A DNA stretch of 64,000 bases from Octopus vulgaris (taxonomy: Eukaryota). The stretch is from assembly GCA_951406725.2 (NCBI GenBank), contig OX597819.1:12152001-12216000 (forward strand), given 5' to 3'. Numbering within the stretch: the first letter of the stretch is position 1; each line of letters starts with the position of its first letter. The notes under the pieces are model-generated. The model was not told the origin of the DNA, did no database searches, and saw only the letters and a list, made by a program, of their open reading frames with translations. This document shows, in pieces, positions 2,250-56,036 of the stretch. Both the position numbers and the translations under genes were made by a program.

Positions 2250-3900
2250 TGAATCCAGAGGCCTAGTAAAGTACATGCACGGTGTAACCAGCTTACTATA
2301 TATAAGAGGAAAATATGACTTGCTAGCTTAGGATAATGGGGAGATCTACATTAAGCAAGACATCTCCATACCAAATGACTGGTAAATCTATGAATGTTCA
2401 CACTGAACGGAATAAAGATTTTAAATATTATTACAGCCTGTAAATCAGGCTACATTTGATGAATGGTGTAACTCCAAGCGACAATCTTTGGAGTGAAAAA
2501 CCTTCAGCTTTCTTACAAGAGATTCTGTACTTGTATTGTAACGGCTTTTCATGACTAAAATTAAATTTGGAGAGCTCCATCTTCATGTGAAGGTCTTTTA
2601 TCAAAATATGGAATATTGATGAAAACAACAGACAATTTCTTTCCATTAAGATCAAATTGAAATCTTTGGGAAATATGGAAAATGTATAAGTGAAGTGGAT
2701 CCGGTCTTTACAACAAGTTAATTGATATTATTGAAGTTTTGTTTTTGCTTTGAAATTTTAAACACCTACAGGAGTGGCTAGTTCATTGCTAGAAGATTGG
2801 GCACATGACTTGCTGAAGATATTTTCCTGATTAGTTAAGACTGCAGGAAGCCTTTTGAAAACAAAAGTGTAGTTAGGGTTAGTACAGATTGATATAGGGT
2901 TAAGAAAGTCGTTAGAAGATAAAATTAGATGAAGAGAAGGCTCACAATAAAGAAGTATCATTTCAATTAGTTGTAACCAAAGTTTGCTAGCTCTCAGCAC
3001 GTCTGAGCATTTGAGAAGTGGTAATAAGTTGGAGTTTTCCTTTCAGAAGGAGTTGCTTATCATCAGGATCAAAAAGTTAAACATTAATCAGGATACACGC
3101 AGAAAGACAGAGAGAGAAAAAAAATTGAAGGGTAGAGTTTGGTGAGAATGAAGAATATTTCTGTGAGGTAGTAACTGAAGGGACTTTGTTAGGGTTATTG
3201 GCCTTGGTAAGTTTGCAGCAAACTATGGTACTTAAGGACTTCGTCTGTGTGTACATGGTGGAATGGGAAGAAACGGTTTGTATAATGGAATTGGTTGCAG
3301 AGCCTTTTCCACAGAACTACTCTCAGAATAACATTGATTGAGAGAGGGAGGGTACTAGGATTCTTCATAGTCAGTAGTGATTCTTTTGGTATACAAAGAT
3401 CAGTTAGAGTTTAGGAACTGGCTAAGGATTATCTAGTTTGCAGGGATGGGTGATTTGGTTCAAGCACTGTAGTTGTTTTGTGTCTGAGCAGCTGGAGTGA
3501 TACTATGAAGTAAAGCATTCAGGGCCATGTGGGATATGGGTGGATATACCTAAGAGAATCAGTGCAGTCACTAGCCTTGACCATTCTGATGGATCAAGAG
3601 TGAAACATGACACTAGGGTAAGCTCGTTAGAGGTTCAGGTTATTGTGATGATAAAAAAGTGATCAGTTGACTTAAGAAGTGCAAAGATAACTATGGGCTG
3701 GGTCTGCATGATGAGAAAGATACAAAGATTATTCGGAATGAATGTGAATGAGTCATCATAAGATGGTTTTCAGGAATAATGGCAGTACAGAACTACAGGG
3801 AAGTTCAGTTCCTGTGTCTGCATGTTCAGCAAGTAACACATGACCAGATCCATGACAACCATAATAACTCAATAGTGTCATTTCTGAATATTCACTGTAT
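2250..3900 (-). mobile_element. Ancient decayed LINE ORF2 (CR1/L2/Jockey-like) that is part of the duplicated unit
   Basis: Residual motifs in the expected order on minus: KANNPNKVPSV (cf. KAxGPDxIP), TKLY...CVYPD* (cf. xLF...GxYPxxW), VVFINIPYFDK (cf. VFLDISKAFDK). Paralogs at ~13950-17050, 26935-28000, 33080-34950, 40090-41750 and 47990-48600. Confidence 0.5.
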
Positions 3901-4550
3901 CCTCATGACAACCATGGGGCTTTACATCAAAATGTTATAATATTGTTATACTTGATGATGGTCTATTTTGCCAATTAAACACCCTCTATATATTTGGTCT
4001 TCTCTTCAGATTTATCATTATTCTAGTTTCTTTGTTCTTTCATCCCTTATCCTGGGACCTCTTCAGTAACTCTCTATCCCATGTCTCTTCTTGTTCTTAT
4101 TCCATTTTGTCTTTCTCTGCTAAGCATCCATATATGTGCAACAATTTGAATCTGTATCTGGGTGCATGTGTATGCTTACTACATTGTTTGTACCTGTGTT
4201 TTTTATTTATTTATCTAATAAGCTACATTCCAAATTTCTCCATCATTAACAATACATTTCAGTAGATATATAACCAGTACGAGGAAATGATTTCCCACAA
4301 ATAACACAGCTGTATGGTTTTCCACCAGTATGAGTATGATTATGCCTTATTAAACACCTCATGTTAGAAAATATTTTGCCAGATTTCAGTGATGTGATTT
4401 CTCTCCAGTGTGTGTATGTATATGTCCTTTTAAGCTGCCTCTATTGGAAAATTCCTTGCTACAAACATCACAGTGATATGGTTTTTCTCCAGTATGCGTA
4501 AGTTTATGAACTAATAAGACAAATTTTTCAGATTTCCCACAAATTGCATA

Positions 4551-5582
4551 TTACAGTGGCTTTTCTCCACTATGAATATGGGTATGAGTTTTTAAGCTGG
4601 TCTTAAGTGAAAATTCTTTTCCACATATTAAACAGTGATATGGTTTCTCTCCTGTATGAATACGTCTGTGTCTTATTAAACTACCATTCTGAGAAAATGC
4701 TTTGCCACAGACGTCACAGTGATGTGGTTTATCTCCAGTATGAATACGTTTGTGATTTACTAAATTGCACTTACCAGCAAAGCCTTTTCCACAAATTTCA
4801 CACCGATATGGTTTCTCCCCTGTGTGAATTCGTTTGTGTAATGTTAAAACATATTTTTCAGGAAATGCTCTCCCACAGATTTCACAGTGGTGTTGTTTTT
4901 CCCCTGTGTGAGAATGTTTATGCCTTATTAAGGTACCGCTACTTGTAAATCCTTTCCCACATACTTCACAGTGATATGGCTTCTCTCCAGTGTGAATCCG
5001 TTTGTGGACTGTTAAAGATTCTTTGACGGAAAATACTTTACCACAAATTTCACAGTGGAAAGGCTTCGAATGAACACCTCTGTGTCTTTCAAAGTTACTC
5101 ACATTAGAAAATGCTTTCCCACAATCATCACACCTGTATGGTTCCTCTCCAGTATGAGTATGTTTATGCCTTGTTAAATTACCAACTTGAGAAAATGTTT
5201 TGCCACAAATTTCACAATCGTATCGTTTTTCTCCAGTGTGAACAAGTTGATGACTTTTTGCACTACTACATCCTGAAAATGTTTTGCCACAGATTTCACA
5301 GTGATATGGTTTCTCTCCTGTGTGAGTACGTTTGTGTGTATTCATGTAACCTTTATAAGAAAATGATTTTCCACATATTTCACAGTGAAATGGCTTTTCC
5401 CCAGTATGTGTACGTTTGTGTTCTATTAAATTTCCTTTTTGCGAGAATGCTTTCTTACATACTTCACAGTTGTATGGCTTTTCCCCAGTATGAGTGCGCC
5501 TATGAATAGCTAAATGGCATTTTGTAGGAAGTACTTTACCACAAATACCACATTTGCAATGTTTGCTCACTTTCTGAAACAT
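4551..5582 (-). CDS. ZF1: C2H2 zinc-finger protein, 12 fingers, 343 aa, intact ORF
   Basis: 12 tandem C-x2-C-x12-H-x3-H units with TGEKP-type linkers. ATG lies a few codons before finger 1 and the ORF ends KPL-TAA. Splice acceptor (ctaat...ttttctttcag/G on minus) gives an exon boundary at ~5711. Confidence 0.92.
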   Translation of the reverse strand: MFQKVSKHCKCGICGKVLPTKCHLAIHRRTHTGEKPYNCEVCKKAFSQKGNLIEHKRTHTGEKPFHCEICGKSFSYKGYMNTHKRTHTGEKPYHCEICGKTFSGCSSAKSHQLVHTGEKRYDCEICGKTFSQVGNLTRHKHTHTGEEPYRCDDCGKAFSNVSNFERHRGVHSKPFHCEICGKVFSVKESLTVHKRIHTGEKPYHCEVCGKGFTSSGTLIRHKHSHTGEKQHHCEICGRAFPEKYVLTLHKRIHTGEKPYRCEICGKGFAGKCNLVNHKRIHTGDKPHHCDVCGKAFSQNGSLIRHRRIHTGEKPYHCLICGKEFSLKTSLKTHTHIHSGEKPL

Positions 5583-7009
5583 TCTCTCAGTTAAATTTTA
5601 CAGTTTTATTCTTTCATTCTGAAGACATAAATTGGTTGATAAATCTCTACCCTAACACAGCAGACTTGCAGTATCCTCTGCAGAAAATCTTCTTTCCATT
5701 GGAAATATGTCCTGAAAGAAAAATAAAATAAATATTAGATACTAAGAAGTGGTGAAATGAGTAGCTATTCGTGTGGTATATGATTGGCTATTCTCAACAA
5801 TATCTCAATCATAGATCAGTGAGTCACAACAAATATTTATGTTGTCCCTCTTCAGGAGTAGAAGTGAGGGAGTAGGTATGTCCTGTTGGAAGTGGGGCTT
5901 GTGGTTCCCACCATAAAGGCAGTTTGTGATGGACAGCACATCAGAAAAGACATGTGAGACTGTACAGCAACAGATAGCAACATGGACATGGAGTTAACCT
6001 TGCAGATTGAGATAGAGAAAGTGGCTGTTTTTTCTGGACTGACAGGTTAGACTACCGTGATTCTCTCTTCCATCTTTTTCTTCCTTTACATCACACCTTT
6101 CATTCTTTTCAGTCAATGAAATAAGTACCAGGTGAATACTTGCATCCATGTAAATCCACTCCCTCCCCTCAAATTGCTGGCCTTGTGCCAAAATGCAAAA
6201 TCATTACTATTTGCTATTTTGAGAACAGATAAAACACAAATCTTCTTTAGCATAAAATCTATTTTTTTCCTCAGTCTCTAAATGAGAGATGAGAGAAAAT
6301 CATGACATATGTAAAAAGAAATCAAATCATTGTTATAGATATACTTGATGCTGAAGAATTACCAAAAAAAAAACATTTCTGCTATTTGGGACAGTGTTTA
6401 AGTAATACTCTGTTGGAGGTACTGTTGTGGGCCCATGGTTACTGGATTATTTCTGCTCAGTATTAATGTTTCGCATAATTATTGTCAGCAAAGTTTCAAA
6501 CATTACACTAAATCCCTCCAACAAGACAAATATTTTTGTCCTTAACTATTCATATGTGTCTAAGAATCTCAGAAAATGATCATCATCATCGTTTAACGTC
6601 CGGTTTCCATACTGGCATCATGGAAATATAGTAACAGTTATTGTTTGTTTTAGTTGAAATAGAACCGATTCCATTAATGTTTTTCTTGTTTCAGCCAATG
6701 GAATGTGCACATGCTGGAGTAATGCCTTGAAAGATTTAGTCCAACTCAATACCAGTAGTTTTTTTTTTTTAAATCTAATATTTATCTTCTTGGTTTCTTT
6801 AGTGGGAGTGTAAGTTATGGTGACATAAACAAACCAACACTGGTTGTCAAGTGATAGTGAAGAGATAATATAAAAGACACACACACACACATCATGGTCA
6901 TGGTTGATGCCGGTGTCACACACCTGGGTACTATTCTCATCAATATCTCATAATCATGGATCAGCAAGTCTCAACTTTATGTTGTCCCTGTTCAGAATGA
7001 AATTGCTGG

Positions 7010-7440
7010 CATTTAATTTACCAGAAATCAGTCAACGGGAAAAAAAAAATTCCAATGATTCCAGGATATGGGATGGGGGCCCAGTTTCCCACTCATCCCA
7101 TTTTTTTCTAAACAAAAATAAGGGGTTTGGAGTATATTATGAGATCAGGGTACTTGACTCCATGCAAAAAATCCGATTTTTTTTTTCTTAGTGAAAATCT
7201 TGCAGGTGAAAAGATCAGTGGGGATTGGTTGGGGGTTAAATTTCCGAGGCTTCCACCTCACTCCACCCCATTTTCCAGAACCAAGAATGGGTTTTGTATC
7301 AAATTAGGTTACCAGTATTCATTCAACGTAAAAAAAACTTTTCCAATGATTCTGGGATTGGGGTGGGGTGGTGGCTTTTTCCCAAACAAAAATCCGATTT
7401 TTTTTCTTAGTGAAAATTGTGCAGGTGAAAGGATCAAATG
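7010..7440. repeat. Unclassified interspersed repeat with internal direct repeats (also ~8245-8340 and ~47000-47640)
   Basis: Repeated aaaaatccgatttttttt-cttagtgaaaa and gggg-gaaatttcc-ccacccc motifs are shared between these sites. Confidence 0.55.
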
Positions 7441-7489
7441 ATACCAGAAAAAGATTTTTGTTCACTTTTTGTTGGCTATTGCCAATGCC

Positions 7490-8036
7490 TTAACTTTTAT
7501 CATCAGATACTGAAAGATTACCATCTATTGTTTCTATGTGCTTAATATACATATCAGTTTTGCATCCTGTGTCGATATAAAAGGCTTTCTGTTAAGGGTG
7601 AACCTTAATAACTAACGTCTCCTCTGTAAATTACTTTTATTCATGTTTGTCGGAGCAAATTTTTTCATTCACAAAATATACTTTCGAAAATTGGCTATAA
7701 TAATGTAGCATTCTACTCGCATTGCTGTGAAGGTATGATGTTATGGAGGGAAAAAAAGGTAGGAGAAAACAGTTACAGGTTTATAAATGTAAGAAAATGG
7801 GTAATTTTAGCTTAATAGCAAGACAGAATTTTTCTGTGTTTAGTGGAGCGGTGTCAACTTAAGGATGTACCCTGTGAAATGTGGTGTCTGTACTGTTCCT
7901 TGTAGGTTTGAATGCTTGGGTTTGTTAACTATAAGAATAACACTGGTCAGCAAAGAACTTGTCCCAAGGGAAAAAATACCTGTATCTTATAAGTTGTGAT
8001 TTGCTGATCTATGATTATGAGATATTGATGATAATA
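7490..8036. repeat. Inverted copy of ZF2 intron segment 12225-12770
   Basis: 7861-7962 reverse-complements to ~12302-12403 with about 3 mismatches, and similarity extends over ~550 bp. Confidence 0.9.
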
Positions 8037-9093
8037 TTTTACTTTTACTCCATTTCATTCATACAGGCAAAAACTCTCACCTGTTTTTTTAAGATGAATT
8101 TATCATTTGTCACTCTACACTTCATTACCATTAATGTCTCTAACCTCTGCATCTTCACTTATTCATTTCAAACTTTTTTGAATTTTCAATGTAATGCAAT
8201 CCACAATCTCTTGAAAATGTATTTAGCAAAATATATTTGAAAATGAGGGTGGGGGTGAAATTTTCGTGGGTTCCACCCACCACACATCTCTTTGGGACAT
8301 ATTAGGTCACTGGAATTCAGTCAACGAAAAAAAAATACATAATAATCTGATATTTTTAGTTATCATGTCATGAGTTAGTTGGCCTTATCTATCTTCATCC
8401 TTTCCATGCTATTCCAGGATTTACTTGTGTAAAGGGGGCAGATCCCAATTTGCATCATTCTCTATGATGGCCTTATATTTAGTCCTGGCTCCTTTCTACA
8501 CTTAGACTCTGTCCCTTTGACACCAGCCAGAGACCTGCATGCAGTGGATGAAGTCTTGTACGTTTCCCTAATTCTGTTGGGTTGCTAGTAGAAACAACAG
8601 TTTTCTCACTCAAACCATATATGATACATGTGACCTAACAAGTAACATTAAAAAGAAAGATTTACTAAAATTTCCAAGAATATTCTGAACATATTATAAA
8701 CATTAATAGTACTTTAATAACATTCATATACATAAATTCTTTGATACAAATATCACAAGATGCTTTTATATTATGTTTTCCTACAAGTCAGTGGTACGGT
8801 TTATCTCCATCATTAAAAGTACATTTATGAGTAGATAGATAATCACTGCGAGTAAATGATTTCCCACACATAACACAGCTGTATGGCTTTTCCCACTATG
8901 AGTACGATTGAGTTAGAAAATATTTTGCCACAGATTTCAAAGTGGTTTAGATTTTCTCCAGTGTGTAAGCTGCCACTACTGGAAAATTCCTTGCCACAAA
9001 CTTCACACTGATATGGTTTTTCTCCAGTATGAGTGCATTTATGAACTAATAGGACAAATTTTTCAGAAGATGCTCTCTCTCACACATTTTATG

Positions 9094-10127
<1,034 letters not shown>

Positions 10128-11712
10128 TCTCTCAGTTAAATTTTGCAATTTTATTTTCTCATTCTGAAAACATTGGTTGATAAATCTCTCTACCCTAACA
10201 CAGCAGATTGGCAGTATCCTCTGCAGAAAATCTTCTTTCAAATGGAAATATGTCCTGAAAGAAAAATAAAATAAATATTAGATACTAATGACTAAAAAGT
10301 TGTGAAATGAGTTGCTATTTGTGTGGTAAGTGATTGACTTATATTCTCAACAATATCTCAATCATAGATCAGCAAGTCACAACCTTTCTTCATGTTGTCT
10401 CTGTTCAGGATCAATAGAATATTCCCTAAGTCCTTATCATTATTATCTAATATCTGTTTTTGGTCCTGGCAAGAGTCGGACAGTTTGACAGGAAGCAGCA
10501 AGGCCCCACCAGGCTCCATTGTCTGTTTTGGCATGGTTTCTACAGCTGGATGCCCTTCCTAATGCCAACCACCTTACAGAGTGTATAATGCATTCTCCCC
10601 GAAGTAAACATTTCTACAAAAAATGCTTTCCCCCATTTGTGGTGGGTGAGAGTGTTATTGTCTTATTTGGCAGCAATAATTAATAATGTTTTCCTACATA
10701 TTGCAGAGTATGCTTCTATCACTTGTTTGAATACATCTGTGATTAAACAAACTGACCAATCGTTCACAGATTGAAACTAGGTAGAATTAGATAAATAGAG
10801 GATATCATTTAACATGGTCAGAAGGAGCTTCATAACAAATATGTAGAATTCTTTCCATTATCACCTTTCAATGTTTTTGGCTATTTCAGACACCGAGCTA
10901 GCTGATTCCTGAGCATACCTGGCTAAACACTTAGTGACATATCTATATTCACATTCTGACAAGGTTAACTTTGCCTTTCATTCTTTTCGGTCAATGAATT
11001 AAGTACCAGTTGACTACTTGCATTCAGGTAAATCCACTGGCCCCTGCCCTCAAACTGCTGGCCTTGTGCCAAAATCTGAAATCAATAATTCTTGTTATTT
11101 TGAGAACAGATAAAACGCAAACTTCTCTCACAGGGATATCTGTCTTATTCCTCAGTCTTTAGATGGAAGAGAGATGAGAAGAAAACATAACATATGTAAA
11201 ATCATTGTTATAGATATACTTGATGCTGAAGAATTACCAGAAAAAAAACCATTTCTGCTATTTGGGACAGTGTGTCAGTAATACTTTGTTGGAGGTACTG
11301 TCATGGGCCCATGGTCACTGGATTATTTCCATTCAGTATTACTGTTTCGCATAATTATTATCAGCAAAGTTTCAAACATTACCCTAAATCCTTCCAACGA
11401 GACAAATATTTCTGTCCTTAACTATTCATATGTGTCTAAGAATCTCAGAAAAATGTCATGCTAATATAGTAACAGTTATTGTTTGTTTTAGTTGAAATAG
11501 AACCGAATCCATTAATGTTTTTCTTCTTTCAGTCGGTGGAATGTGGCCATGCTGGGGTAATGCCTTGACAGGTTTGGTTCAACTCAACACCAGTACTGTT
11601 TTTTTAAATCTAGTATTTATCTTCTTGGATCTCTTTAGTGGGAGTGTAAGTTATGGTGACATAAACAAACCAATACTGGCTGTCATGTGATAATGAGGAA
11701 CTAATACAAAAG

Positions 11713-11749
<37 letters not shown>

Positions 11750-12150
11750 GGCGCAGGAGTGGCTGTGTGGTAAGTAGCTTGCTAACCAACCACATGGTTC
11801 CGGGTTCAGTCCCACTGCGTGGCATCTTGGGCAAGTGTCTTCTGCTATAGCCACGGGCTGACCAATGCCTTGTGAGTGGATTTGGTAGACGGAAACTGAA
11901 AGAAGCCTGTCGTATATATGTGTATATATATGTATGTATGTGTGTGTGTGTGTGTTTGTGTTTGTCCCCCTAGCATTGCTTGACAACCGATGCTGGTGTG
12001 TTTACGTCCCCGTTACTTAGCGGTTCGGCAAAAGAGAACGATAGAATAAGTACTGGGCTTACAAAGAATAAGTCCCGGGGTCGATTTGCTCGACTGAAGG
12101 CGGTGCTCCAGCATGGCCGCAGTCAAATGACTGAAACAAGTAAAAACAAA
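11750..12150 (+). mobile_element. tRNA-derived SINE family A, full length
   Basis: A-box-like tggctgtgtggtaag, B-box-like gggttcagtccc, internal (TA/TG)n, and tail ...gactgaaacaagtaaaa. Absent from the paralogous site at ~6890. Confidence 0.85.
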
Positions 12151-12777
12151 AACAATAAACATAGTCTTGGCTGATGCCTCTGTCACAGAATAGGTACCCT
12201 TCTCAGTGTCAGAAACCTGGCGCTATTATCATCAATAAATATCTCATAATCATAGATCAGCGAACCACAACTTATAAGATACAGGTATTCATTCCCTTGG
12301 AACAAGTTCTTTGCTGACCAGTGTTATTCTTATAGTTAACAAACCCAAGCATACAAACCTGCAAGGAACAGTACAGACGCCACATTTCACAGGGTACATC
12401 CTTAAAGTTGACACCACTAAACGCAGAAAAATACCGTCTTATTATTAGATAAAAATACCTAGTTTCTTACATTTATAAACATGTAACTGTTTTCTCCGAC
12501 TTTTTTTTCCCTCCATACCAACATACCCTCACAGCAATGTGAATAGAATGCAACACTATTATAGCCAATTTTCAGGTTTTTTACTGTCTTCTACAGAAAG
12601 TATATTTTGCGAATGAAAAACATTTGCTCCGACAAACATGAATAACAGTAATTTACAGAGGAGAGGTTAGTTAATAGCGTTGACCCTTAACGGAAAGTCT
12701 TTTGTCTAATTTACGGTATGAGTACCATAGTTTAAGATCGCCAGCCTTTTATATCGACACAGCATACAACACAAATA

Positions 12778-13075
12778 CATTTTGCGCGTGGACGTACTTA
12801 TTCGTCGGATCTACAAACTCCTCTCGATGCACAATCATTTCGTGAGAGCACATACCGTCATTTAAGCATCCAATATTGCTGTAGGATCGCCGGACATCAC
12901 TCGCAATGTGACTCTCCCTGGAAGAATAGAGCAAGTCTGTACAATACGATCAGGCATTTTTTGGAAATCCTTTCAATGCCACCAAAAACCCAACGGCCAG
13001 CTAGCGGTTGCCCATTACTATCAACACCGACAACTTTGGAGAATGATTTCGGTGGAAGAACGAGAACTTAATTAT
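12778..13075 (-). mobile_element. Second copy of the Merlin relic (segmental duplicate, empty for the CR1 insertion)
   Basis: ORF 12749..12934 contains HIASDVRRSY...HREEFVDPTNKYVHAQNV; near-identical to 1441-1720. Confidence 0.78.
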
Positions 13076-13148
13076 CTCCCGTTTAATTTGTATTTATTTC
13101 TTTAATCACCAGATACTGAAAGCTTGCCCAATGGATAAATAAATGTCA

Positions 13149-13307
13149 TCTTACCTTAACACATTTCTTCTCCTGAATAACTACCCATTCTTAGTATCAA
13201 TCAGAAACATCAACTGCTAAATAATTCTAACGCCGTCCACGAGGAATCGGTAAAAGCATGGCCAGAGACTAAGATGGCGGTGTTATATATGAAATCAAGT
13301 CACGTGG
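13149..13307 (-). promoter_or_regulatory. Promoter/exon-1 module P2 (upstream of ZF2)
   Basis: E-box at 13299-13306, YY1-like site at 13271-13280, donor at ~13154. Confidence 0.65.
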
Positions 13308-13389
13308 TCTACAGGCTAAGTTTTCTTTCGTTCTTCATTCGATAGAAAGTTTCGCCTGAAGTTCTGAGTTTCGGATAACGTGAAATATA

Positions 13390-13776
13390 TTTCTTTATTG
13401 CACACAAGGAGCTAAACATAGGGATTAAGTTGATCACATCGACCCCAATATGCAACTGGTACTTTATTTATCGACCCTGAAAGGATGAAAGGCAAAGTCA
13501 ACCTTGGCAGAATTTGAACTCAGAACATAAGACAGACGAAATACCTATTTCTTTACTACCCACAAGGGGCTAAACACAGAGAGGACAAACAAGGACAGAC
13601 AAACGGATTAAGTCAATTACATCGACCCCAGTGCATAACTGGTACTTATTTAATCGACCCTGAAAGGGTGAAAGGAAAAGTCGACCTCGGCGGAATTTGA
13701 ACTCAGAACATAACGGCAGACGAAATATGGCTACGCATTTCGCCCGGCGTGCTGACGTTTCTGCCAGCTCGCCGCC
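13390..13776 (-). mobile_element. tRNA-derived SINE family B, one full plus one partial tandem copy
   Basis: Head ggcggcgagctggcagaaacg, B-box gagttcaaattcc, and two tails. Imperfect TSD (aacgtgaaatat / agcgtgacatat). Absent at the paralogous site ~2030. Confidence 0.85.
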
Positions 13777-15507: not shown

Positions 15508-16718
15508 ATTCAATTCAATTCAATTTTTATTGGCTCAAAAAGCAAAAGCAAGGCCATGTAGGGGGACAGGGAGGGTGGTCATACAAAGAGTTCAGGCCAT
15601 TTCTGGTCAAGAGAGACTTTAAACCGAGCGGTTGTCAGCATCTTCACTATCTCATCCGGCAGCTTATTCCACGGATCCGCAACCCGGACGGAGAAAGCCC
15701 CTCTCCTTCGATTGAGATGAAATCGTCGTAGATAGAGCTTTTCGAAGTGACCCCGCAGCTCACGCTCTGGAGCAGGAGTGAAGAAAAGCTCTTTTGAGGT
15801 GTTACACTTTCTGCTTATGATGTTGTGAGCGAGAATGAGATCACCACAGCGGCGGCGTTTTTTGAGAGAATAAAGGTCGAGCGTCTTCAGCCTTTCTTCA
15901 TAAGACAAATGCTTGAGACCAAGAACCATGCTGGTAGCCAGCTTCTGGACTCTTTCGAGATGATGTATGTCTTTGAGGAGATAAGGAGAAGAGGCTTGAA
16001 TCCCGTACTCCAATATGGGTCTCACCAGTGTGATATAGAGCGGTAGGAATATGGCTGCTGTGAGCATTCCGAATGACCGTTGAATCAAAAACAGAACTCC
16101 GCATGCTTTGTTGGCAGCATGGACACATTGGGCCGAAGGCAAAAAGGAAGAATCCACTAAGATACCCAGGTCCTTTACTTGGTCGGTCTTCTCCAGCAGC
16201 AGATGACCCGGCTCAAAATCAAGTTGAGTTGCAGGAGAGGAGCCAACAGGCAGATGACAACACTGTGACACGTTCAGACACAGGTCCCATTCGTTTGACC
16301 ATCTCCAAATTTGGTGGAGGCATTGACGAAGATCATCTATATCACTGCGAGGAGCGACCAGTTTGACATTGTCGGCAAATAGAAAGGTGTGTTGCGTGAG
16401 GTCGTCGGGCAAGTCATTGATGAAGACTAAAAAGAATAACAGCCCAAGCACTGAACCTTGAGGCATGCCACTGCTCACACTCAAGACGTCAGACAGTGAA
16501 CCATTAACTTGGACTTGGAAGGAGCAATCTGAGAGGAAGGCACCAACTCATCGTACAATATCCGGATGGAAACGATATGCTTGAAGCTTGACACGTAATA
16601 GGCGGTGGTTAACCGAGTCAAAAGCTTTGGCAAAGTCCAATAAAACTATGTCAACAGCATCACCATCATCCAGGATACGCGTCACCAATTCTTCCATTAC
16701 CAGTAAGTTGGTCAAGCA
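15508..16718 (-). mobile_element. CR1-clade LINE, 5'-truncated, reverse transcriptase fragment (301-aa ORF)
   Basis: LDFAKAFDSVNH, GMPQGSVLGLLFFLVFINDLP, FADN (catalytic YADD degenerate), KDLGILVD, LERVQKLAT, WNKLP, and an (ATTGA)n tail. Confidence 0.92.
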
Positions 16719-21099: not shown

Positions 21100-22280
21100 T
21101 AAATGATGAGAATGAGTAGAAGAAATATGGTCTGCCAAATGTCGACCCAACAGAGGGTCCAGTTATCTGTATTGACAGTACCTTGGTAGATAAAGCAATT
21201 AAGGGTATGAAGACAAGGAAAGACCCCAGCCCATCAGGAATCACTGCAGAGATGCTTAAAATACCTGGTGGTGTAGGCTATAGTCTAGACACCTGTATAG
21301 TCAATCAGGTGATACATGAAGGAGTCATACCCAATGACTGGTATAGCAGCACCATAGTCAACTGCTACAAAGGTAAAGGTGATGCATTAGATACGAAAAA
21401 TTACAGAGATATCAAATTGTTGGATCAGATGACGAAAGTCACGGAGAGGGTCATAGCCCAACTAATTAAGGAGAGAGTTAGTTTAGACGAGATGCAGTTT
21501 GAGTTTGTGTCAGGGAGAAGCACCACTGGTGCTATATTTCTGGTAAAACAGCTGTCAGTAAGGTAAGGGTTGGCAATATAGTAAAGAATTCCAGGTAGGG
21601 GTCCACCAAGGATCAGTCCTCAGCTCACTCTTATTCATCATAGTCCTCCAGACAACAACAGAAGAATTCAAGACAGGATGCCCCAGGGAGCTCCTCTATG
21701 CTGATGTACCTGGGTAAGCTATGGACACATATGAGGTGCAGCAATATCAAAGGAAGGCTAACTGTGAAAATAGTTTTTTTGTGTGGCAGATAAACATGTG
21801 CAGAAAACAGTTTCCGTCACATGTCAGGTGGAAAAACTAGAAGCAGTTGATGGCTTCCATTACCTAGGTGACCAAGTCAGTAGCAGGAGTGGATGCTCTG
21901 AGAGCATAGCTGTAAGAATAGCTTGGGCGAAGTTCAGAGAGTTCCTACCTCTGCAGGTATCAAAAGGCCTCATGCCCAGAGTGAAAGGTACACTGTATAA
22001 CACATGTGGGTGAACAGCCATGCTACACGGCAGTGAAACATGGGCTGTGATAACTAAGGATATGCGTAAGCTTGCAAAAAATTAAGCTGGTATGCTCCAC
22101 TGGATGTGTAATGTCAGTGTGCATGCACGACAGTGTAAGCGCCCTGAGAGAAAAGCATCAGATGTGATGTACAAGAGTCAACTGCACTGGTAAGGTCGTG
22201 CTGCGTATGGATGAGGACAGCTATGTGAAGAAGTGTCACACCCTAGCAGTGGAGGGAACCTGTGAAAGAAGTAGACTCAC
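21100..22280 (+). mobile_element. RTE-clade LINE RT relic
   Basis: PSGITAEMLK...YKGKGDALDTKNYRDIKLL...MQFEFVSGRSTT, VGVHQGSVLS, ELLYAD, FHYLGD; many stops and indels. Confidence 0.85.
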
Positions 22281-24197: not shown

Positions 24198-24787
24198 CAG
24201 TAACTTACATTGGAGAGGTTAGTTAATTGGGTTGACTATTAAAAGAAAGCCTTTTATATCGACCCAGGATGGGAAACAATTATCGGCGGAGATAAAGACA
24301 ATGGACCGCACCGCCTTTTGGGATTTTATTTATTTATTATTTTTTTCCAGGAACCCACTATATCGAGTGCGGAGATTCCGAATCTGCAAGAAAATCTGCA
24401 TTTAAAAATTTTAATCCCACACCCCAATTTGTTTTTAATTTTCACTTTAAAAAAACAAGTATGTTTCTCTGGCGCCTGTTTCATTAGAATATTTCGAGAC
24501 ACTATCTTGTCAGAAGAATACCGAAAATTTAATAACTTGATCGATTTGTACATTATCTACATTAAATATAGAACTGTATTAATCAAAATGTGACTAAACC
24601 TTCATTTATTATCAATTATATAGATAATTACAGTTATGGTCTGTAAAGAAAACTTATTTATCTGTACATTTTCATAAATGTTTCTCTTTTGCGATCCTTT
24701 GTAACGCTTGTCGTAAAAGAGAAACATGAAAATGTACAAATAGATAAGTTTTCTTTACAGACCATAATTGTTATTATCTATATAATA

Positions 24788-25167
24788 TCTCTCTATATAA
24801 AGCTGAAGTTGTCTGTGTATGGCAGGTTTGGTAGCCTTCAACTAACACTATCTCCTCCAAGACCCTGCGGCTCAAGTATGATAGAAGAAGGCTTGCTCTT
24901 CCTTCCGTAGAAGAAAAAATTCAAATCGGACCATGTTAACGCCAAAAATTATTTACATAAAAAAGGTGCTTTTTTTCTATGAAAATCCATATTTTTTACG
25001 ATTTTTTTACTGCTGTGTCGCCATTTTTCGGTGTATTTCAACCAGAAAAATGTTCACTTAAAGAGAATAACAAGCTACATAATGCAACATTTTTACTTTT
25101 CAAAAAATCCAATTCTAAAGGGTCGAAAAGAAAACAAGCCCGAGCAACGCTGGGCTATAACTGCTAG
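24788..25167 (+). mobile_element. Non-autonomous Helitron nested in the foldback element
   Basis: A/TC...cccgagcaacgctggg...CTAG/T. Confidence 0.8.
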
Positions 25168-25455
25168 TTGATAATAAAGTTGGTATAAAATGAAATTAAA
25201 TGAAGGTTTGGTCATAAATCGATTAAGTTAGTAAATCTTTGATATTTTTGTGACAAGATAGTGTCTCGAAACATTCTAATGAAACAGGCGCCAGAGAAAC
25301 ATATGTAAATATAACCATTTTTTTTTTTTTTTGAAAATTGAAATTTTACCATTTTTTGTTTTTTCGGAATCATAATCTCCGTATTTTGCCACGCACCCGC
25401 CAGTTTTTTAAAAGTGAAAATTGAAGAAATTGAAGGGTGAGGGATTATAATTTTG

Positions 25456-25718
25456 GGCGATCTTTCGTCTCTAGTAGACCTTTCTGTCGATTACACAACA
25501 TACTGTCTGTCTCCCACACCCCATCAAACACACACACACATGTACATCAATGCTCCCATACACGGTAACTTCAAAAGAACTTCCCTCGTCATACAATCGC
25601 TTTCTCTTAGTCTCTTTCGCTCTCATTACTTCAAAAGTTCCCGCAAGCCCATTTGTAAAAAAAAAAAATTTTTTTTACGGAAATCGACGGAAAGGTCTAC
25701 AAGAGACGAAAGATCGCC
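25456..25718. mobile_element. MITE with ~37-bp TIRs (ggcgatctttcgtctc...)
   Basis: TIR pair and flanking repeat (a/t)taattttg. Confidence 0.85.
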
Positions 25719-25889
25719 TTAATTTTGAAATGCAGATTTTTGGGCAGATTCGGAATCTCCGTATTGGAATAGTGGGTTCCTAGAAAAAAAAAAAAAGCAA
25801 TTCCAAATGGAGATGTGGTCCATTGTCTTTACTTCAGCCACAATTACCTATTTTAATCACGTACAAAGATTGCCGATAAATAAACATTA

Positions 25890-42089: not shown

Positions 42090-43469
42090 TTAAGCCATAT
42101 AAAAGAAAAAAAAACAGTTATTGTTATATACACTCTTATACATATTTGCCACAGCCTCTTTGAACAGGGGAGTGGTGGGCAGTTGAAAGACATCTTGTGG
42201 TAGCTCGTTTGGCATGATCCAACCATATTTCATCTTCTCTTCAGCTTTATCATTAATCTAGTTTCTTTCCTAAAGCGCTTTCATCCAACATCTCGTGACC
42301 TCCTCAGTGATTCTCAATCCCATGTCTCTTCTTATTCTGCTTATTCCATTTCGCATTTCTGTGGTATGTATCCTTATCTACGCAACAACTTGCAGCTGTA
42401 TCTGGGTGTGTGTTTTGTCTGCATATGCGTATCCTTAATACATTTTTGGTACCTGGATCTTTTACTTTTCTTCTTTCTCATTGTCTTTAGTATGTCTTGT
42501 GTTTGTGTATACAGGTTTATGTATTATACTGCATCTATCTGTATTTCCTCTTAATCTTTCATCATCAGGTTGCCCAGTGTGGTAGAGTGGAGTCAATCCA
42601 TTCATGTCTTCTATTGAGGCTCAGTCCATCCACTACTGTATATATGGCCACCATAATCTAGTCTGTGCTGATAATATCTTAACATCTATGTTATTAACGA
42701 AGCCTCCATGTTCTAATTGAGCATGTTGGTCGAGCACTGTTGACCTTCTCTCCTCCCTCACCTTCCACCACTGTATGTCATCGTCTTGTTTCTCTACCAT
42801 ATCTCACACTGTAAGCTACATTCATAGCTTAAGTTTTTCTGTGGGTTCATCCTACACACTATACAGCTGCTCTCCCTATAGGTGGGTCTTTCAAATGGAT
42901 ATGTGCTTCTGATCTAGGATTTCATGGAGATCCCTGTCCTTTCTACTACTAAATTCATCTCATCTAAGGTTTTCCAAAAATTATATGCTTGTTCACCTAC
43001 AGGGGTAGCATCAATGAACATAATACTCTTGTATTTTTAGTTATCTTACTATGAGTTAGTTGGCCTTATCCATCTTCTTTATCCTTTCCATGCAACTCCA
43101 GGATTTACCTGTATAGAGTGGGCAGATCCAAATTTGCATCATTCTCTATGATGGTCTTGTATTGAGTCCTAGCTCCGTTGTACTCTTTGATCCTATCTCT
43201 TTAACAATACCCAGAGAATGCAGTAGATGAAGTGTTGTACATCTCCCTAATTTTGCCAGGTTGCTAGTAGTAGAGTTTTCTCATTTTAACCATATCATAT
43301 AATGCATGTGACCTAACAAGTAACATTGAAAAGATAAATTTACTACAACTTCCAAAGAATACACTAAACATATTATAAACATTTATAGTAATTTAATAAC
43401 ATTCATATACATAAATTCTTTAATACAAATATCACAACAATATGGTTTTATAATATGCTTTCCTACAAA

Positions 43470-43770
43470 AGTCAGTGGTAAGGTTTATCTCCATCATTAA
43501 AAGGACATTTATGAGTAGATATATAATCACTGTGATTAAACACAAATAACACAGCTGTATGGTTTTTTCCCAATATGAGTATGATTATGCCTTATTAAAC
43601 ACCTCAAGTTAGGAAATGTTTTACAACAGATTTCCAATGTGTGTATGTATGTTTTTTTAACCTGCCACTATTGGAAAATTTCTTCCCACAAACTTCACAG
43701 TGATATGGTTTTTCTCCAATATGAGTGCGTTTATGAAATAATAGGACAGATATTTCAGAAAATATTTTCC
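43470..43770 (-). pseudogene. Orphan fossil-finger tail (second tail downstream of ZF6; probable relic of a deleted ninth gene)
   Basis: Diverged paralog of 44481-44802, cut at ...gaaaatattttcc by an RTE fragment. Confidence 0.65.
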
Positions 43771-44445
43771 TTCGTAGAAGTAGGGGTTCACGAAGGTTCA
43801 GAGTTCAGTCCCCTTTTATTCATTATAGGCAATAACAGAGGAATTCAAGATGGGTTGCCTCCAGGAGCTCCTCTATGCTGATGACCTGGCCCTCATAGTG
43901 GAATCACTACCAGAACTAGAAAAGAAATTTCCGGTGTGGAAGCTAGGTTTAGAATCAAAAGGCCATAGAGTCAATGTAGCAAAGACCAAAGTTCTAGCAA
44001 GTAGGAAGGCAAACTGATCACATACACACTCGATCTGTAGAAAAGGTGTAGGTAGAAACTCCATAAAATGTACCCAGTGTAAGCTATGGACACATAAGAG
44101 GTGCAGCAACATCATCGAGAAGATAGCTTTCGTGTGCCACAGATACTCAGAAAACAGATTCCATCACACACCAGGCGAAGAAACTAGAAGTAGTTGATAG
44201 CTTCTGCAACTTAGGTGACCAAGTTAGTAGTGGGGGTGGAGGCTCAGAGTGTTACCACTAGAATAAGAATAGCCTGGGCAAAGTTTAGAAAGGAATCTGG
44301 GGTAGAGGTAGACCCATGAAGACATGGGATGAGGTGGTCAAGCATGACCTTCGAACGTTGGGTCTCACAGAGGAAATGACAAAAGACCAAGACCTCTGGA
44401 GATATGCTGTGATTGAGAAGACCCAGCAAATAAAGTGAGTTCATG
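43771..44445 (+). mobile_element. RTE-clade LINE fragment, same family as 21100-22280
   Basis: VEVGVHEGSEFSPLLFII, ELLYADDLAL, VNVAKTKVL, CKLWTHKRCSNI. Confidence 0.85.
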
Positions 44446-44802
44446 GCTCGCAAGATGGCCAACTGTGCTGTGCTTACAAAAGTCAGTAGTAAGGTTTATC
44501 TCCATCATTACCAATACATTTATGAATACATATATAATCACTGCGAGTAAATGATTTCCCATAATTAACACAGTTTTACCCCAGTATGAGTACGCTTGTG
44601 TCTTATTAAACACCTCAAGTTAGGAAATGTTTTGCCACAGATTTTGCAGATTGCCAGTGTGTGTATGTTTTTTTAACCTGCCACTACATGAAAATTTCTT
44701 CCCACAAACTTCACAGTGATATGGTTTTTAACCAGGATGAGTGCATTTATGAAGAAATAGGACAGATTTTTCAGAAATGCTTTCCCACATATCTCACATT
44801 AT

Positions 44803-45831
44803 TTATGGCTTTTCTCCTGTATGAATACGGTTATGTATTGTTAAGCTGGTCTTAAGTGAAAACTTTTGTCCACATATTAAACAGTGATATGGTCTCTCTC
44901 CTGTGTGAGTACGTCTGTGTCTTTTTAAACTACCATTTATAGAAAATGCCTTCCCACAGATTTCACAGGAGTACGGTTTTTCTCCAGTATGAATACGTTT
45001 GTGACTTTTTAAGCTGCTACTATCAGAAAAGTCTTTTCCACAAATTTCACACCGATATGGTTTCTCTCCTGTGTGAATACGTTTGTGTAATGTTAGTCCA
45101 TATTTTTGAGGAAATGCTTTCCCACAGATTTCACAGTGGTGTCGTTTTTCTCCTGTGTGACTATGTTTATGCTTCATTAAGGTACCTCTGTTTGTAAATC
45201 CTTTCCCACATATGTCACAAGGATATGGCTTCTCTCCAGTATGAAGACGTTTGTGTATTGTTAAAGAGTATTTTATAGAAAATGCTTTATCACAGATTTC
45301 ACAGTGGTAAGGTTTTGAGTGCACACCTCTGTGTATTTCACAGGCACTTGCAGTAGAAAAAGCTTTCCCACAGTCATCACACTTGTATGTTTCCTCCCCA
45401 GTGTGAGTACGCTTATGTCTTGATAAATTACCAACTTGAGAAAATGTTTTGCCACAGATTTCACAATGGAATTGTTTTTCTCCAGTGTGAATAAGCTGAT
45501 GAATTCTTACACTACAAAACAGCGAAAATGCTTTGCCACAGATTTCACAATGAAATGGTTTCTCTCCTGTGTGAGTACGTTTGTGTATCTTTATGTAACC
45601 TTTACTAGAAAATGATTTTCCACATATTTCACAGTGAAATGGCTTTTCCCCTGTATGTGTACGTTTGTGTTCTGTTAAATAAGTTTTAACAGAGAATGCT
45701 TTCTTGCATACTTCACAGCTGTATGGCTTTTCTCCAGTATGGGTGCGCCTGTGAATAGCTAAATTACGTGTTGTACTAAGTAGTTTGCCACAAATACTGC
45801 ATTCATAATGTTTGCTCACTTCCTCAGACAT
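44803..45831 (-). CDS. ZF6: C2H2 zinc-finger protein, 12 fingers, 342 aa
   Basis: Intact ORF (MSEEVSK...) with 12 C2H2 repeats ending KP-TAA; acceptor at ~45956. Confidence 0.92.
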   Translation of the reverse strand: MSEEVSKHYECSICGKLLSTTRNLAIHRRTHTGEKPYSCEVCKKAFSVKTYLTEHKRTHTGEKPFHCEICGKSFSSKGYIKIHKRTHTGEKPFHCEICGKAFSLFCSVRIHQLIHTGEKQFHCEICGKTFSQVGNLSRHKRTHTGEETYKCDDCGKAFSTASACEIHRGVHSKPYHCEICDKAFSIKYSLTIHKRLHTGEKPYPCDICGKGFTNRGTLMKHKHSHTGEKRHHCEICGKAFPQKYGLTLHKRIHTGEKPYRCEICGKDFSDSSSLKSHKRIHTGEKPYSCEICGKAFSINGSLKRHRRTHTGERPYHCLICGQKFSLKTSLTIHNRIHTGEKP

Positions 45832-46597
45832 TCTCTGAGTTAAATTTTCAGTTTTATTCTTTTATTCTGAAGACAATTGGTTGATAAATCTCTATCCGAA
45901 CACAGCAGATTTGCAGTATCCTCTGCAGATAATCTTCTTTCCAATGGAAATATGTCCTGAAAGAAAATAAAATATATCTTAGATACTAACAACCAAAAAG
46001 TTGTGAAATGAGTAGCTGTTTGTGTGGTATATGATTAACTATTCTCAACAATATCTCACAATCACAACTTTGATCTATGTTGTCTCTGCTCAGGATTAAT
46101 AGAATATTCCCTAAGTCCTCATCATTATTATTTAATATCTGTTTTTGACCCTGGCAAAGGATGGATAGTTTGACAGGCTCCATTGTGTGTTTCGGTATGG
46201 TTTCTACAGCTGGATGCCCTTCCTAACACCAACTACTCAGCAGAGTGATCTTTGTGCTTTTTACATGGCAGAAGCAATGGTGAGGTCAGTTTTGGCAAGG
46301 CTTTTACAGCCCTGTTTCTTGTTTAATTTGTTTCCAGATAATATTGTAAACATTAACACTTTCTTATCTTCATATACATCCACACACTCATATACATATA
46401 TACACACACACACATATAGGCAATGATTGCCTACAGGCACATAGGGACTCTTTTGTTTTGACTCGGAGGCGAAACATAGCCATATGTATGCATGCATGCA
46501 TACATATGGCTATGTTTCGTATGTATGTTTACATATGCTTACACTACAACTATAGAAAAAACATTTTCAGCATAAAATACACACAATATAAATTCAC

Positions 46598-46925
46598 TCG
46601 GTTCCGCGTTCAGTCCCACTGCATGGCACTTTGGGTAAGTGTCTTCTACTATAGCCTCGGGCCAACCAAAGCCTTGTGAGTAGATTTGGTAGACGGAAAC
46701 TGAAAGAAGCCTGTCATATATGTGTGTGTGTGTGTGTTTGTCCTCCCACCATCACTTGACAACTGATGTTGGTGCGTTTACATTCCCGTAACTTAGCAGT
46801 TCGGCAAAAGAAACCGATAAAATAAGTGCTAGGCTTACAGAGAGTAAGTTCTGAAGTCAATTTGTTCGACTAAAGATGGTGTTCCAGCATGGCCGCAGTC
46901 AAATGACAATAAAAACAAAAAAATA
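46598..46925 (+). mobile_element. SINE family A, 5'-truncated
   Basis: Similar to 11795-12150. Confidence 0.8.
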
Positions 46926-47155
46926 AAGGAATATGAATTCACATTCTCTATATATTTAATAACGAACCACTAATCCACATGCTGGAAAATGTATTTATGT
47001 AAAGCGTTGGGAGTGGGGTAGGGAATGAAATTTCCTAAGTTTCAACCCCACCCCACTGTTTCCAGACCAAAAAAACAGGTTTTTTTATCATCGAATGAAT
47101 TACGGTGACCTAATATGCCACTGTAATTCATTCAATGGAAAAAAAAAAATTTCCA

Positions 47156-47455
47156 CAAGTGTCTTCTACTATAGCCTCAGGCCGACCAAAGCCGTGCGAA
47201 TGGATTTGGTAGACAAAAACTGAAAAAAGCCCATCGTATATATATATATGTATGTGTGTGTGTCTGTGTTTGTGCCCCCAACATTGCTTGACAACTGATG
47301 CTGGTGTGTTTACGTCCCCATAACTTAGCAGTTCGGCAAAAGAGACCGACAGAATAAGTACTAGGCTTACAAAGAATAAGGCCTGGAGGCAATTTGCTCG
47401 ACTAAAGGTAGTGCTCCAGCATGGCCACAGTCAAATGACAAACAAGTAAAAGAGT
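47156..47455 (+). mobile_element. SINE family A, 5'-truncated
   Basis: Similar to 11832-12150. Confidence 0.8.
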
Positions 47456-49394
47456 AATGATTCCCACCACTTTTTTTTTCCAAACAAAAATATGGGATTT
47501 GCTGCCAAAAATCTCGTTTTTTCTCCCCCTTAGTGAAAATCATGCAAGTGTACTTCCCAATGAGGATGGGACCGAGGTGAAACTTCCGAGGGCTCCACCC
47601 CACTGTGTTTTCTGGACCAAAGGAAGGGGTCCTTACTTAAGTACAGAGGTCTCAATGCATCTATGTAACCCAAACCCTAAAATGGTCAATATGAAGATTG
47701 ACTTACGTTAATAATAAAAATAAAGCAGCCTGCTTGATGTTAAATACTGCAGAAAACAAATGCAAACCAAAAAATTGCGCAAACGAACGTGGGTGGGGTG
47801 AGGACTGTTGGAAAATTTACATGATCCATTTTACCCACCTCGTAACTTTCAACAAACAATCATGGAGTCGACCCAACACGAGAACAACTTTTGTAAAAGT
47901 AATAACCAACGAAAAACGGTAAGGTGGTGGTATCAACATACCATCACTAAACTGATGACCTCAGAGCCTTATATTCATATAGCAATCTCCATTGCTATAC
48001 ACCTCTAGAGGTGGCCAGTTCATTTGTAGAAGATTGTGTACAACACTTGCTGAAGACATTTTTCTGATTAGTTACGACTAAGAATTCTTTCGGAAACAAA
48101 AGTTTATTTAGAGTGAGGACAAATTGATACAGGGTTACTGGAGTGGATAGAAGGAAAAAAATTACATCAAGAGAAGTCTCACTTGTGTAGAATATAGAAG
48201 CATCATTTTAATCAGTTGTAACCAAAGTTTGCTAGTTCGCAGTACATGTCTGAGCATTTGCGAAGTGGTAATAGTTTGCGGCTTTTCTTTTAGAATTAGT
48301 TATATATCATCAGGATCAGAAGGTTAAACATTAATCAGGATACACGCAGAAAGACAGAGCAAAAGACTGACGGGTAGAGTTTGGTGAGAATGGGAGATAT
48401 TTGTGTGGGGCACTGACAGAAGGTAACTTAAGCGACTTTGTTAGAATTATTGGCCTTGGTAAGTTTGCAGCAGACTGAGGTATTTTAGGTCTTAGCCTGT
48501 GTGTGTGTGCATGGTGGAATGGGAAGAAACGTTTAGCACAATAGAGTTGGTTGCAGTGATATTTCCACAGAACTACTCTGAGAATTACAATGTTTGAGAG
48601 ATGAAGCTCCTTCAGTCTTTCTTCTCCTCATTCTCTTTTTCATCATCAGGTTGTGCAGTGTGGTGGAGTGGAGCTGATGTTATTCCATTCACGTTTTCTC
48701 AGTCAGTCTACTACTGCATGTGTGGCCTCCATATTGTCTGATCTATGTGTTGATATGTTAACATCTGTTATTAACCATGCCTTCATGTCCTAATTGAGCA
48801 TGTTGGTAGAGCACTGATGAGCTTCTCTCCTTCACCGTCCACCAGTGTATGTCATATCCTCTTTCTCTTCCATACCTCACTACACTTTATATTTTAAGCT
48901 ACATTCCTCACTTTACAGTTTATCCGTGGGTTCACCCTACACAGTTGCTCTCCTTACAGGTGGTTCACTCAAATGGATACGTTTTACAGATCTGGTATTT
49001 TATGGAGGTCCCTGGCCTTTCTACTACTTTAATAAATAAATTCATCTTATCTAAGGTTTTCCCAAAAACATATGCTAGTTCATCAACAAACATAATACTC
49101 TGGTAGTTTTAGTTATCATACCATGAGTTAGTTGACCTTACCTATCTATCTTCAACCTTTCCATGCTATTCCAGGATTTACTTGTGTATGGTGGGCACAT
49201 CCCAATTTGCATCATTCGCCATGATGGCCTTGTATTTAGTCCTGACTCCTTTCTACACTTTGATACTATCTCTTCAACAGCAGCCAGGTAACTGTGTGCA
49301 GTGGATGGAGTGTTGTATGTCTCCCTAATTCTGTTGCATTGCCACTAGTAGTAGTAATAGTAACAATGGTTTTCTCACTCTAACCATATCATAT

Positions 49395-49520
49395 GATACA
49401 TGTGACCTAACAAGTAACATTAAAAATGAAAAAATTTACAACTTCCAAAAAATACACTAAACATATTATAAACAATTATAATAATTTAATAATATTCATA
49501 TACATAAATTCTTTAATACA
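49395..49520 (-). promoter_or_regulatory. Putative polyadenylation region (shown for ZF7; conserved after ZF2-ZF8, deleted after ZF1)
   Basis: Two ATTAAA hexamers on minus followed by a GT/T-rich tract and the invariant ...gttacttgttag/gtcaca block. That block could alternatively be a splice acceptor. Confidence 0.4.
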
Positions 49521-49564
49521 AATATCACAACAAAATGGTTTTATAATATGCTTTCCTACAAAAG

Positions 49565-49906
49565 TCAGTGGTAAGGTTTATCTCCATCATTAAAAGTACA
49601 TTTATGAGTAGATATATAATCACTGTGATGAAATGATTTCCCACAAATAACACAGCTGTATGGTTTTTCCCCAGTATGAGTACGATTATGCCTTATTAAA
49701 CACCTCAAGTTAGGAAATGTTTTGCCACAGATTTCACAGTGGTGAGGTTTCTCTCCAGTGTGTATATGTATATGTCCGTTTAAGCTGCCACTATTGGAAA
49801 ATTCCTTGCCACAAACTTCACAGTGATATGGTTTTTCTTCAGTATGAGAGCATTTATGAATTAACATGATAGATTTTTCAGAAAATTCTTTCCTGCATAT
49901 TTCTCA
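49565..49906 (-). pseudogene. Fossil fingers downstream of the ZF7 ancestral stop (ATG-initiated 100-aa ORF)
   Basis: ORF 49565..49867 has two canonical fingers and one atypical finger. Confidence 0.8.
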
Positions 49907-49983
49907 TTAGTGTGGCTTTTCTCCGGTATGAATACGGTTATGTATCATTAAGCTGGTCTGAAATGAAAAATTTTTTCCACATA

Positions 49984-55860: not shown

Positions 55861-56036
55861 TCTTACCTTAATACTGCCTTCTCCTGAATAACTATCCTTT
55901 GTTAACATCAATAATAAAACAAAACATGCTAAATAATTATAACTCCCGCCATGATGACCCTATTTCGGTAAATGTCTCGTGAGAAACTAAGATGGCGGTG
56001 TTATATAAATTCTATTGGTCACTTCGGGTCACGTGG
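55861..56036 (-). promoter_or_regulatory. Promoter/exon-1 module P7 (upstream of ZF7; most complete copy)
   Basis: E-box at 56028-56035, ATTGG at 56014-56018, TATA-like ttatataa at ~56001, AAGATGGCGG at 55989-55998, donor at ~55866. Confidence 0.7.

Follow-up and report, generated by a model that had tools for sequence, protein, structure and literature searches.

We analysed a stretch of 64,000 nucleotides from Octopus vulgaris (the window; positions 12,152,001 to 12,216,000 of contig OX597819.1), in which two C2H2 zinc-finger exons of the minus strand, ZF1 and ZF2, lie downstream of one promoter-like module, P2, and a pair of inverted sequences, arms A and B, brackets ZF2. A sequence-only reading had proposed that the arms pair in the P2 transcript, loop out a broken ZF2, and route P2 to the intact but promoterless ZF1. 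With moderate confidence, we favour the view that the inverted arm is debris of rearrangements in the turnover of a tandem cluster and not an RNA switch. ZF1 would be an intact copy in this cluster that lost its promoter and its normal 3' end. A rearrangement would long ago have placed a piece of a neighbour's intron in the ZF1 intron as a reversed copy, which would have decayed since. P2 would mostly yield a seven-finger ZF2 product, and any transcription of ZF1 from it would be leaky read-through. We found no positive support for a switch: the arms diverge at a neutral level, their mismatches show no enrichment in G-U pairs, the ZF2 poly(A) signal lies in the loop, and other promoterless exons lack such a pair.

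A tandem cluster with promoterless copies

We examined the window plus 100 kb on each side (264 kb of a genome of 2.8 Gb in 227 contigs); all positions are given relative to the window. Between -23.6 kb and +93.6 kb (~117 kb) this region contains 14 C2H2 zinc-finger exons that are related to one another, 12 on the minus and two on the plus strand, and at 43 kb a tail-only fragment. The finger arrays (C-x2-C-x12-H-x3-H, with TGEKP linkers) and the repetition of whole-gene units (14 exons, 10 full modules) are those of a tandem C2H2 cluster. Each unit consists of a non-coding exon 1, an intron of a few kb, and a single terminal exon, in which the finger array stands between a short leader and the 3' flank. 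The 14 exons are accompanied by 10 full exon-1 modules and one weak remnant. CACGTG is present in nine of the 10 modules and the donor AAG|GTAAG in eight. This conservation suggests that the module acts as a promoter. A search of the genome with the module returned seven matches, all inside the cluster. ZF1 has 12 fingers, ZF2 has 7, and 11 other copies have 12-19. The paralogs are 83-91% identical (less for U91 and the U43 fragment), and there are indications of gene conversion, of truncation, and of parts having been lost. Their best matches in a protein search are multi-finger C2H2 proteins (36-52% identity); among the 120 matches listed of 137, mostly vertebrate zinc-finger proteins, there was no close octopus relative. 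None of the 10 inner branches of the coding-sequence tree is well supported, and this tree does not show ZF1 and ZF2 to be sisters.

The ZF1 coding sequence (4551-5582, minus strand) encodes 343 amino acids and 12 C2H2 fingers, without frameshift or internal stop. Its splice acceptor (5711-5713, minus strand; TTTCAG|GAC, with the AG at 5713-5712 and the exon starting at 5711) has the motif of the paralogs, so that the frame and acceptor are as intact as first described. The intron remnant (5712-8336, minus strand) is paralogous to the ZF2 intron (83% between 6096-6892 and 10974-11728) and ends without an exon 1, at a junction (8336/8337) where it is fused to the 3' flank of ZF2. This is the site of the promoter loss of ZF1. 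The earlier claim that no exon-1 or promoter module separates the two genes also holds: an nhmmer profile of the 10 cluster modules had no match at E<=10 in 2846-13134. What had escaped notice is that ZF1 also lacks ~1 kb of the family's 3' flank, with its conserved ATTAAA, at a deletion junction on the minus strand (4202-4237; 4214/4237). AATAAA hexamers persist beside it, at 4211 and 4207.

ZF2 (coding sequence 9387-10127, minus strand) was described as broken by a frameshift. The 2-bp insertion (9464-9467) is real and unique to ZF2, being absent from the 12 other copies that align there, but the frame remains open for 246 codons and encodes seven complete fingers. Junction-dependent decay of the frameshifted transcript would not be expected, because the stop lies in the last exon. 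The ZF2 acceptor (10254-10256, minus strand; exon start at 10254) is a strong consensus like that of the paralogs. Its poly(A) signal, ATTAAA (8713-8718, minus strand), occupies the same column in all 11 units that retain this flank and is probably used efficiently.

The module P2 (13134-13347, minus strand) contains CACGTG, a TATA-like motif, CCGCCATCTT, and the donor AAG|GTAAGA at 13154, which has the top donor score within 12800-13400 (splice sites were scored with a weight table). Motif conservation suggests that P2 functions as a promoter; it had been assigned to ZF2 with this donor, which stands, and it is also the nearest upstream promoter to ZF1. Its sister module, P0 (400-1990, minus strand; module proper 1777-1990), has an exon 1 98% identical to that of P2 and serves two zinc-finger exons left of the window. 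P0 and P2 have in common an 11-bp deletion (1935-1950 and 13290-13310) that removes a CCAAT box present in six of the eight other modules.

Three of the 14 exons are intact orphans, i.e. they keep the acceptor and have no module: U-5 (-5154), ZF1, and U44 (44803). U79 has a weak remnant of a module only (E = 3e-7).

The inverted pair

Arm A spans 7440-8036 (core 7579-8036). Arm B lies in the intron of ZF2, at 12224-12772; an insertion of 47 bp, also found in the copy at 400-549, divides it into a core (12224-12703) and a second stretch (12743-12772). Both arms are annotated on the plus strand. The pair exists as claimed and brackets the ZF2 exon and its poly(A) region. Its identity had been called high over 7490-8036 and 12225-12770, where it is 79.5% (459 of 577 columns, longest perfect run of 51 nt); only the core (7579-8036 against 12224-12703) reaches 85.6% (416 of 486 columns), with an additional match between 7557-7586 and 12743-12772. 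Positions 7494-7552 have no partner in the ZF2 intron and match 549-607 instead. The arms flank the ZF2 exon with a gap of 4188 nt between them and would pair if co-transcribed: the predicted duplex, a fold that had been suggested as a check, is stable and far above chance (-634.6 kcal/mol, against -124 to -137 in 10 shuffles). Inverted pairs are common here, with 267 at most 15 kb apart in the 264 kb. If the limits of transcripts are ignored, 12 of the 14 exons are bracketed by some pair, and the predicted strengths at U59 (-586 kcal/mol) and U79 (-555 kcal/mol) are similar.

The divergence of the arms, 36 substitutions in 452 aligned bases (8.0%) plus six gaps, lies within the range of paralogous introns (6.1-9.7%). 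Mismatches that still pair as G-U number nine of 36 on the transcribed strand against 11 of 36 on the other, i.e. there is no G-U bias. In this comparison of two arms within one genome we thus found neither conservation above background nor pairing-preserving changes, and the arms are probably unselected.

Origin of arm A

In the tree of the segment at the start of the intron, arm A groups with P0 and P2 with high support (100/99): the three have a common origin. Arm A lacks the 47-bp insertion common to P0 and P2 and keeps 59 bp that are present in P0 (549-607) and lost in P2. The tree and these differences show that arm A is an old copy from the P0/P2 lineage. They rule out a recent copy of today's ZF2 intron. 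With 47 bp gained and the partner of the 59 bp lost, arm B has undergone changes that make the stem weaker. We also rejected an inversion in place of ZF1's own intron, because ZF1 retains an uninterrupted 70-nt motif (6932-7001) that both arms have cut at 46 nt.

About 310 bases of arm A (7686-7995) are themselves an interspersed repeat, with 693 candidates genome-wide. A piece of a second repeat family lies on each side of arm A, one at 7007-7446 (1440 first-look candidates genome-wide) and one at 8020-8335 that is cut off at the ZF1/ZF2 junction. An internal duplication at 7018-7436, considered as a rearrangement signature, belongs to the repeat family itself. Since the junction at 8336 lies 300 bp beyond the arm, at the cut end of the repeat, arm insertion and promoter loss can be separate events, and the loss is probably the more recent one.

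The insertion in P0 is bounded by a 63-bp inverted repeat (579-641 and 1709-1771), ~20 nt inside the P0 intron. P2 retains one end only (13066-13128), and arm A carries the other. Within this insertion, 726-807 is a 98.8% copy of the 82 bases directly left of the window.

Survival of the promoterless exons

Several observations weigh against the reading of the arm as debris beside a largely silent ZF1. The pair is the strongest of those bracketing an exon in the cluster, and the second by score of all 267. All three orphans have a perfect acceptor and an intact 12-finger frame, and are no more decayed than the copies with a promoter. The ratio of non-synonymous to synonymous substitution rates (dN/dS) is 0.42 in the orphans (22 synonymous and 37 non-synonymous private changes) and 0.63 in eight promoter-bearing copies (56 and 141), a difference with p = 0.2; ZF2 and U79 were left out of this set and U91 was not analysed. 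A ZF1 silent over the age of the arms should have suffered 6.8 disabling hits, and would have remained intact with a probability of 0.001. Two contigs of low depth, both of which could be DNA, lie where read-through would place them: one of run X1 is identical to the ZF1 intron at 5751-5978 (no other letter, depth 4.4), and one of run X2 (8489-8715, depth 3.6) extends past the predicted cleavage site of ZF2, to which it is far nearer (six other letters) than to any paralog (at least 25). The intactness of the orphans implies that either the promoter loss is recent or the orphans are expressed or share first exons.

The reading we favour thus needs a recent promoter loss or gene conversion, because a silent ZF1 is unlikely to stay intact. 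The probability of finding it so rises to 0.18 over a quarter and to 0.51 over a tenth of the arms' age. These estimates use the arms' own substitution and indel rates, and intron indel rates probably overstate the coding ones. Gene conversion from active paralogs, with which ZF1 has 24% of its 31-mers in common, could also refresh the ZF1 frame. The private changes of ZF1 (seven synonymous and 14 non-synonymous) give a dN/dS of 0.50, which is not significantly below 1 (p = 0.11).

The contigs come from a comparison of 5500-8800 with the assembled contigs of four of 24 sequencing runs: X1 and X2, guessed to be RNA, and X18 and X19, which are DNA-like. Such contigs omit rare forms, and 32 pieces are listed beside 20155 unlisted ones, so that gaps in their cover are no evidence of silence. 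Each of the 10 pieces of X1 and X2 listed for the ZF1 exon differs from it by 2-6 letters and looks like a paralog. Within 16 bases of the acceptor two positions separate ZF1 from ZF2, and the letters at 5516, 5517, 5528, and 5557 are private to ZF1. The ZF1-specific letter is not covered by the listed contigs at 5547, 5599, and 5605 (X1) or at 5595 and 5599 (X2), nor do they cover arm A at 7498-7830 in either run. Contigs of X1 and X2 stop at the acceptor (5713), one of them with 20 unplaced letters beyond it. A search with the ZF1 exon returned 24 runs, none of them listed as RNA, 20 with part of the exon and none with half or more (shares of 0.14-0.35), which is uninformative because 364 of the 1494 31-mers of ZF1 (24%) recur in paralogs. 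The T>C differences listed for X1 and X2, at 5599, 5605, and 7133 (A>G on the transcript strand), also occur in the DNA-like runs and are thus genomic variants.

Alternative explanations

A less probable alternative, which we retain, is that first exons are shared: exon 1 of P2 would be joined to ZF2 or ZF1 as alternative last exons, and likewise that of P0 to U-2 or U-5 and that of P49 to U49 or U44. Poly(A)-site strength and read-through would set the choice, with the arms incidental or a minor modifier. In these three cases two acceptor-bearing terminal exons do lie downstream of one promoter and donor. The state of the orphans described above fits this explanation, since each of the three has a perfect acceptor, a 12-finger frame, and a dN/dS below 1, and neutral survival is unlikely unless the promoter loss was recent. 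So do the two contigs of low depth from X1 and X2, which are presumed RNA runs, and the loss of the conserved poly(A) flank by the proximal exon of the P0 pair, U-2. However, ZF2 retains its conserved poly(A) signal, and the corresponding flank of ZF1 is gone. A read-through transcript would also meet the AATAAA that arm A places on the transcribed strand at 7641 and the strong donor-like site at 8080, and the dN/dS of ZF1, not significant when taken alone, may predate the promoter loss.

The P0 locus (contig ~12146800-12153990, window -5154 to 1990) also faces two zinc-finger exons. The proximal one, U-2, has 14 fingers; the conserved poly(A) flank is gone, and the exon is joined directly to the intron of U-5, the distal one, which has 12 fingers and an intact flank. 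We regard this pair as a better candidate for alternative last exons than ZF2 and ZF1. At 43018-56077 a single module (55851-56077) faces U49, the orphan U44, and the tail-only fragment (43018-43800), which carries the conserved poly(A) signal that U44 lacks.

A bolder combination seems doubtful to us: that deletions repeatedly made genes with one first exon and two DNA-binding last exons (the three cases above), and that a chance inverted copy helps P2 to skip the frameshifted ZF2 in favour of ZF1. The one-promoter, two-exon layout does not need the arms, because U-5 and U44 recur without a comparable pair: the best pairs bracketing the exons upstream of them measure 66 nt at U-2 (-115) and 284 nt with 76% identity at U49 (-372).

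The structure-driven switch itself, in which the arms would pair in a read-through P2 transcript, loop out ZF2, and join exon 1 to the ZF1 acceptor, we consider quite unlikely. Its geometry is right, with arm B within 400-450 nt of the exon-1 donor, the predicted duplex is strong, and there would be a benefit in passing over a frameshifted exon to reach an intact one. In primates, pairs of inverted repeats favour the skipping of exons, and they need not be under selection to do so (PMC13019027, PMC13019944). Yet the ZF2 poly(A) signal is part of the 4.2-kb loop and not of the stem, and arm A begins 680 nt after it and would be transcribed at least that much later. Arm A also ends ~1.85 kb away from the ZF1 acceptor. 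The ZF2 acceptor is strong, whereas loop-out skipping favours weak ones (PMC13019027). The arms show the divergence expected of neutral sequence and no G-U bias, and the other orphans have no such arms. Back-splicing fares no better, since the best donor inside the ZF2 exon scores 3.9, against 6.5 for that of exon 1, and the sole strong site, at 8080, is in repeat DNA. We therefore rejected a circular ZF2 RNA.

Slightly less probable still is that ZF1 has its own, unrelated transcription start, e.g. in the repeat pieces of its intron. The intact frame, the X1 contig over the intron, and donor-like sites at 6923 and 8080 upstream of the acceptor would fit such a start, but there is no family-type module, and the depth of the contig is low in a run that may hold DNA.

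An error of the assembly at the inversion, at the junction, or at the frameshift is very improbable: tandem clusters are hard to assemble, none of the listed contig pieces bridges the right end of arm A, and the frameshift is known from the assembly alone, but it is a dinucleotide insertion and not a homopolymer slip, arm A has its own alleles while those of arm B occur in separate contigs, an X19 contig (7409-7859, 451 letters, one other letter) holds arm A and crosses its left boundary by 28-38 letters, and an X18 contig (8306-8427, no other letter) bridges 8336/8337 exactly.

Other features of the cluster

Most copies (e.g. at 4551, 18724, 29904, 36905, 44803, and 59889) end at about the same finger boundary, by lesions that look different, and the 3' region retains a decayed tail of ~4 fingers. 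The ancestral end is still reached only in U79 (15 fingers) and U-16 (19). The donor is damaged in two modules (63198-63378 and contig ~12234650-12234870): that of U59 reads AAG|GTGCG, and that of U91, whose reading frame is also broken after six fingers, is deleted. Further local inverted duplications or palindromes occur in or near the introns of other units (24285-25839, 46470-46519, 54629-54926, and 56105-56321), the one at 46470-46519 being a perfect 50-bp palindrome. The open reading frames at 15579-16547 (minus strand), 21120-21566 (plus strand), and 52928-54037 (plus strand) seem, by eye, to be remnants of reverse transcriptases from retroelements and of a protein derived from a transposon.

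Comparison with known systems

In Drosophila, mod(mdg4) and lola reportedly join common 5' exon(s) to alternative 3' DNA-binding exons, and their shared part is said to encode a BTB domain. This layout is what shared first exons would give. In the octopus cluster, by contrast, exon 1 does not code for protein, a module of its own accompanies most exons, and the sharing is putative. TBXT is said to be a case of exon skipping by the looping-out of inverted repeats.

PMC13019027 and PMC13019944 describe this type of skipping for internal exons, with weak acceptors favoured. The likeness to the inverted Alu pairs described there lies in the two long, opposed, largely repeat-derived arms on the two sides of an exon, ~85% alike, less than 5 kb apart, and predicted to form a stable stem. 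The cases described there are internal cassette exons, whereas ZF2 is a terminal exon with a conserved, intact ATTAAA and, by our scores, no strong internal donor.

PMC6191721 reports docking and selector RNA pairing in the 3' variable regions of Drosophila PGRP-LC, CG42235, and Pip. As in the octopus, one upstream exon faces tandem 3' cassettes, and pairing is proposed to bring the donor to the distal cassette. The elements described there are short, conserved over ~40 million years, present as one selector per cassette in competition for a single docking site, and verified by compensatory mutation. The octopus pair is instead single, long, and decaying, with no selector upstream of ZF2: we found no set of selectors, one per 3' cassette, competing for arm B, which has a single long partner, and only a 45-nt motif from the arm end recurs near other acceptors.

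Expansions of C2H2 zinc-finger genes by tandem duplication have been described in coleoids (PMC9068888, PMC9795677), and our cluster of tandem multi-finger genes is of this kind. The passages of these papers used here concern gene counts and chromosomal placement, and not unit anatomy, promoterless copies, or shared first exons. For the protocadherin clusters of cephalopods, diversification is reported to proceed through the duplication of whole genes rather than through splicing (PMC9068888). RNA editing in O. vulgaris is reported to fall mostly in introns and 3' untranslated regions and rarely to alter splice sites, and circular RNAs are low (PMC9699675). The duplex, if formed, could thus be edited without acting as a switch. 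Our literature searches found no paper that deals with a shared first exon, or with the pairing of RNA, in zinc-finger clusters of cephalopods; PMC9699675 has a supplement with isoform annotation, outside those searches, that may bear on it.

Implications

An intact open reading frame in such clusters is not the same as an independent gene, since three of the 14 exons have no promoter module. If the inverted arm is rearrangement debris, as we favour, the locus would illustrate the ordinary turnover of tandem zinc-finger clusters. If instead the first exons are shared, the locus would reveal how tandem duplicates in cephalopods turn into cassette-type genes.

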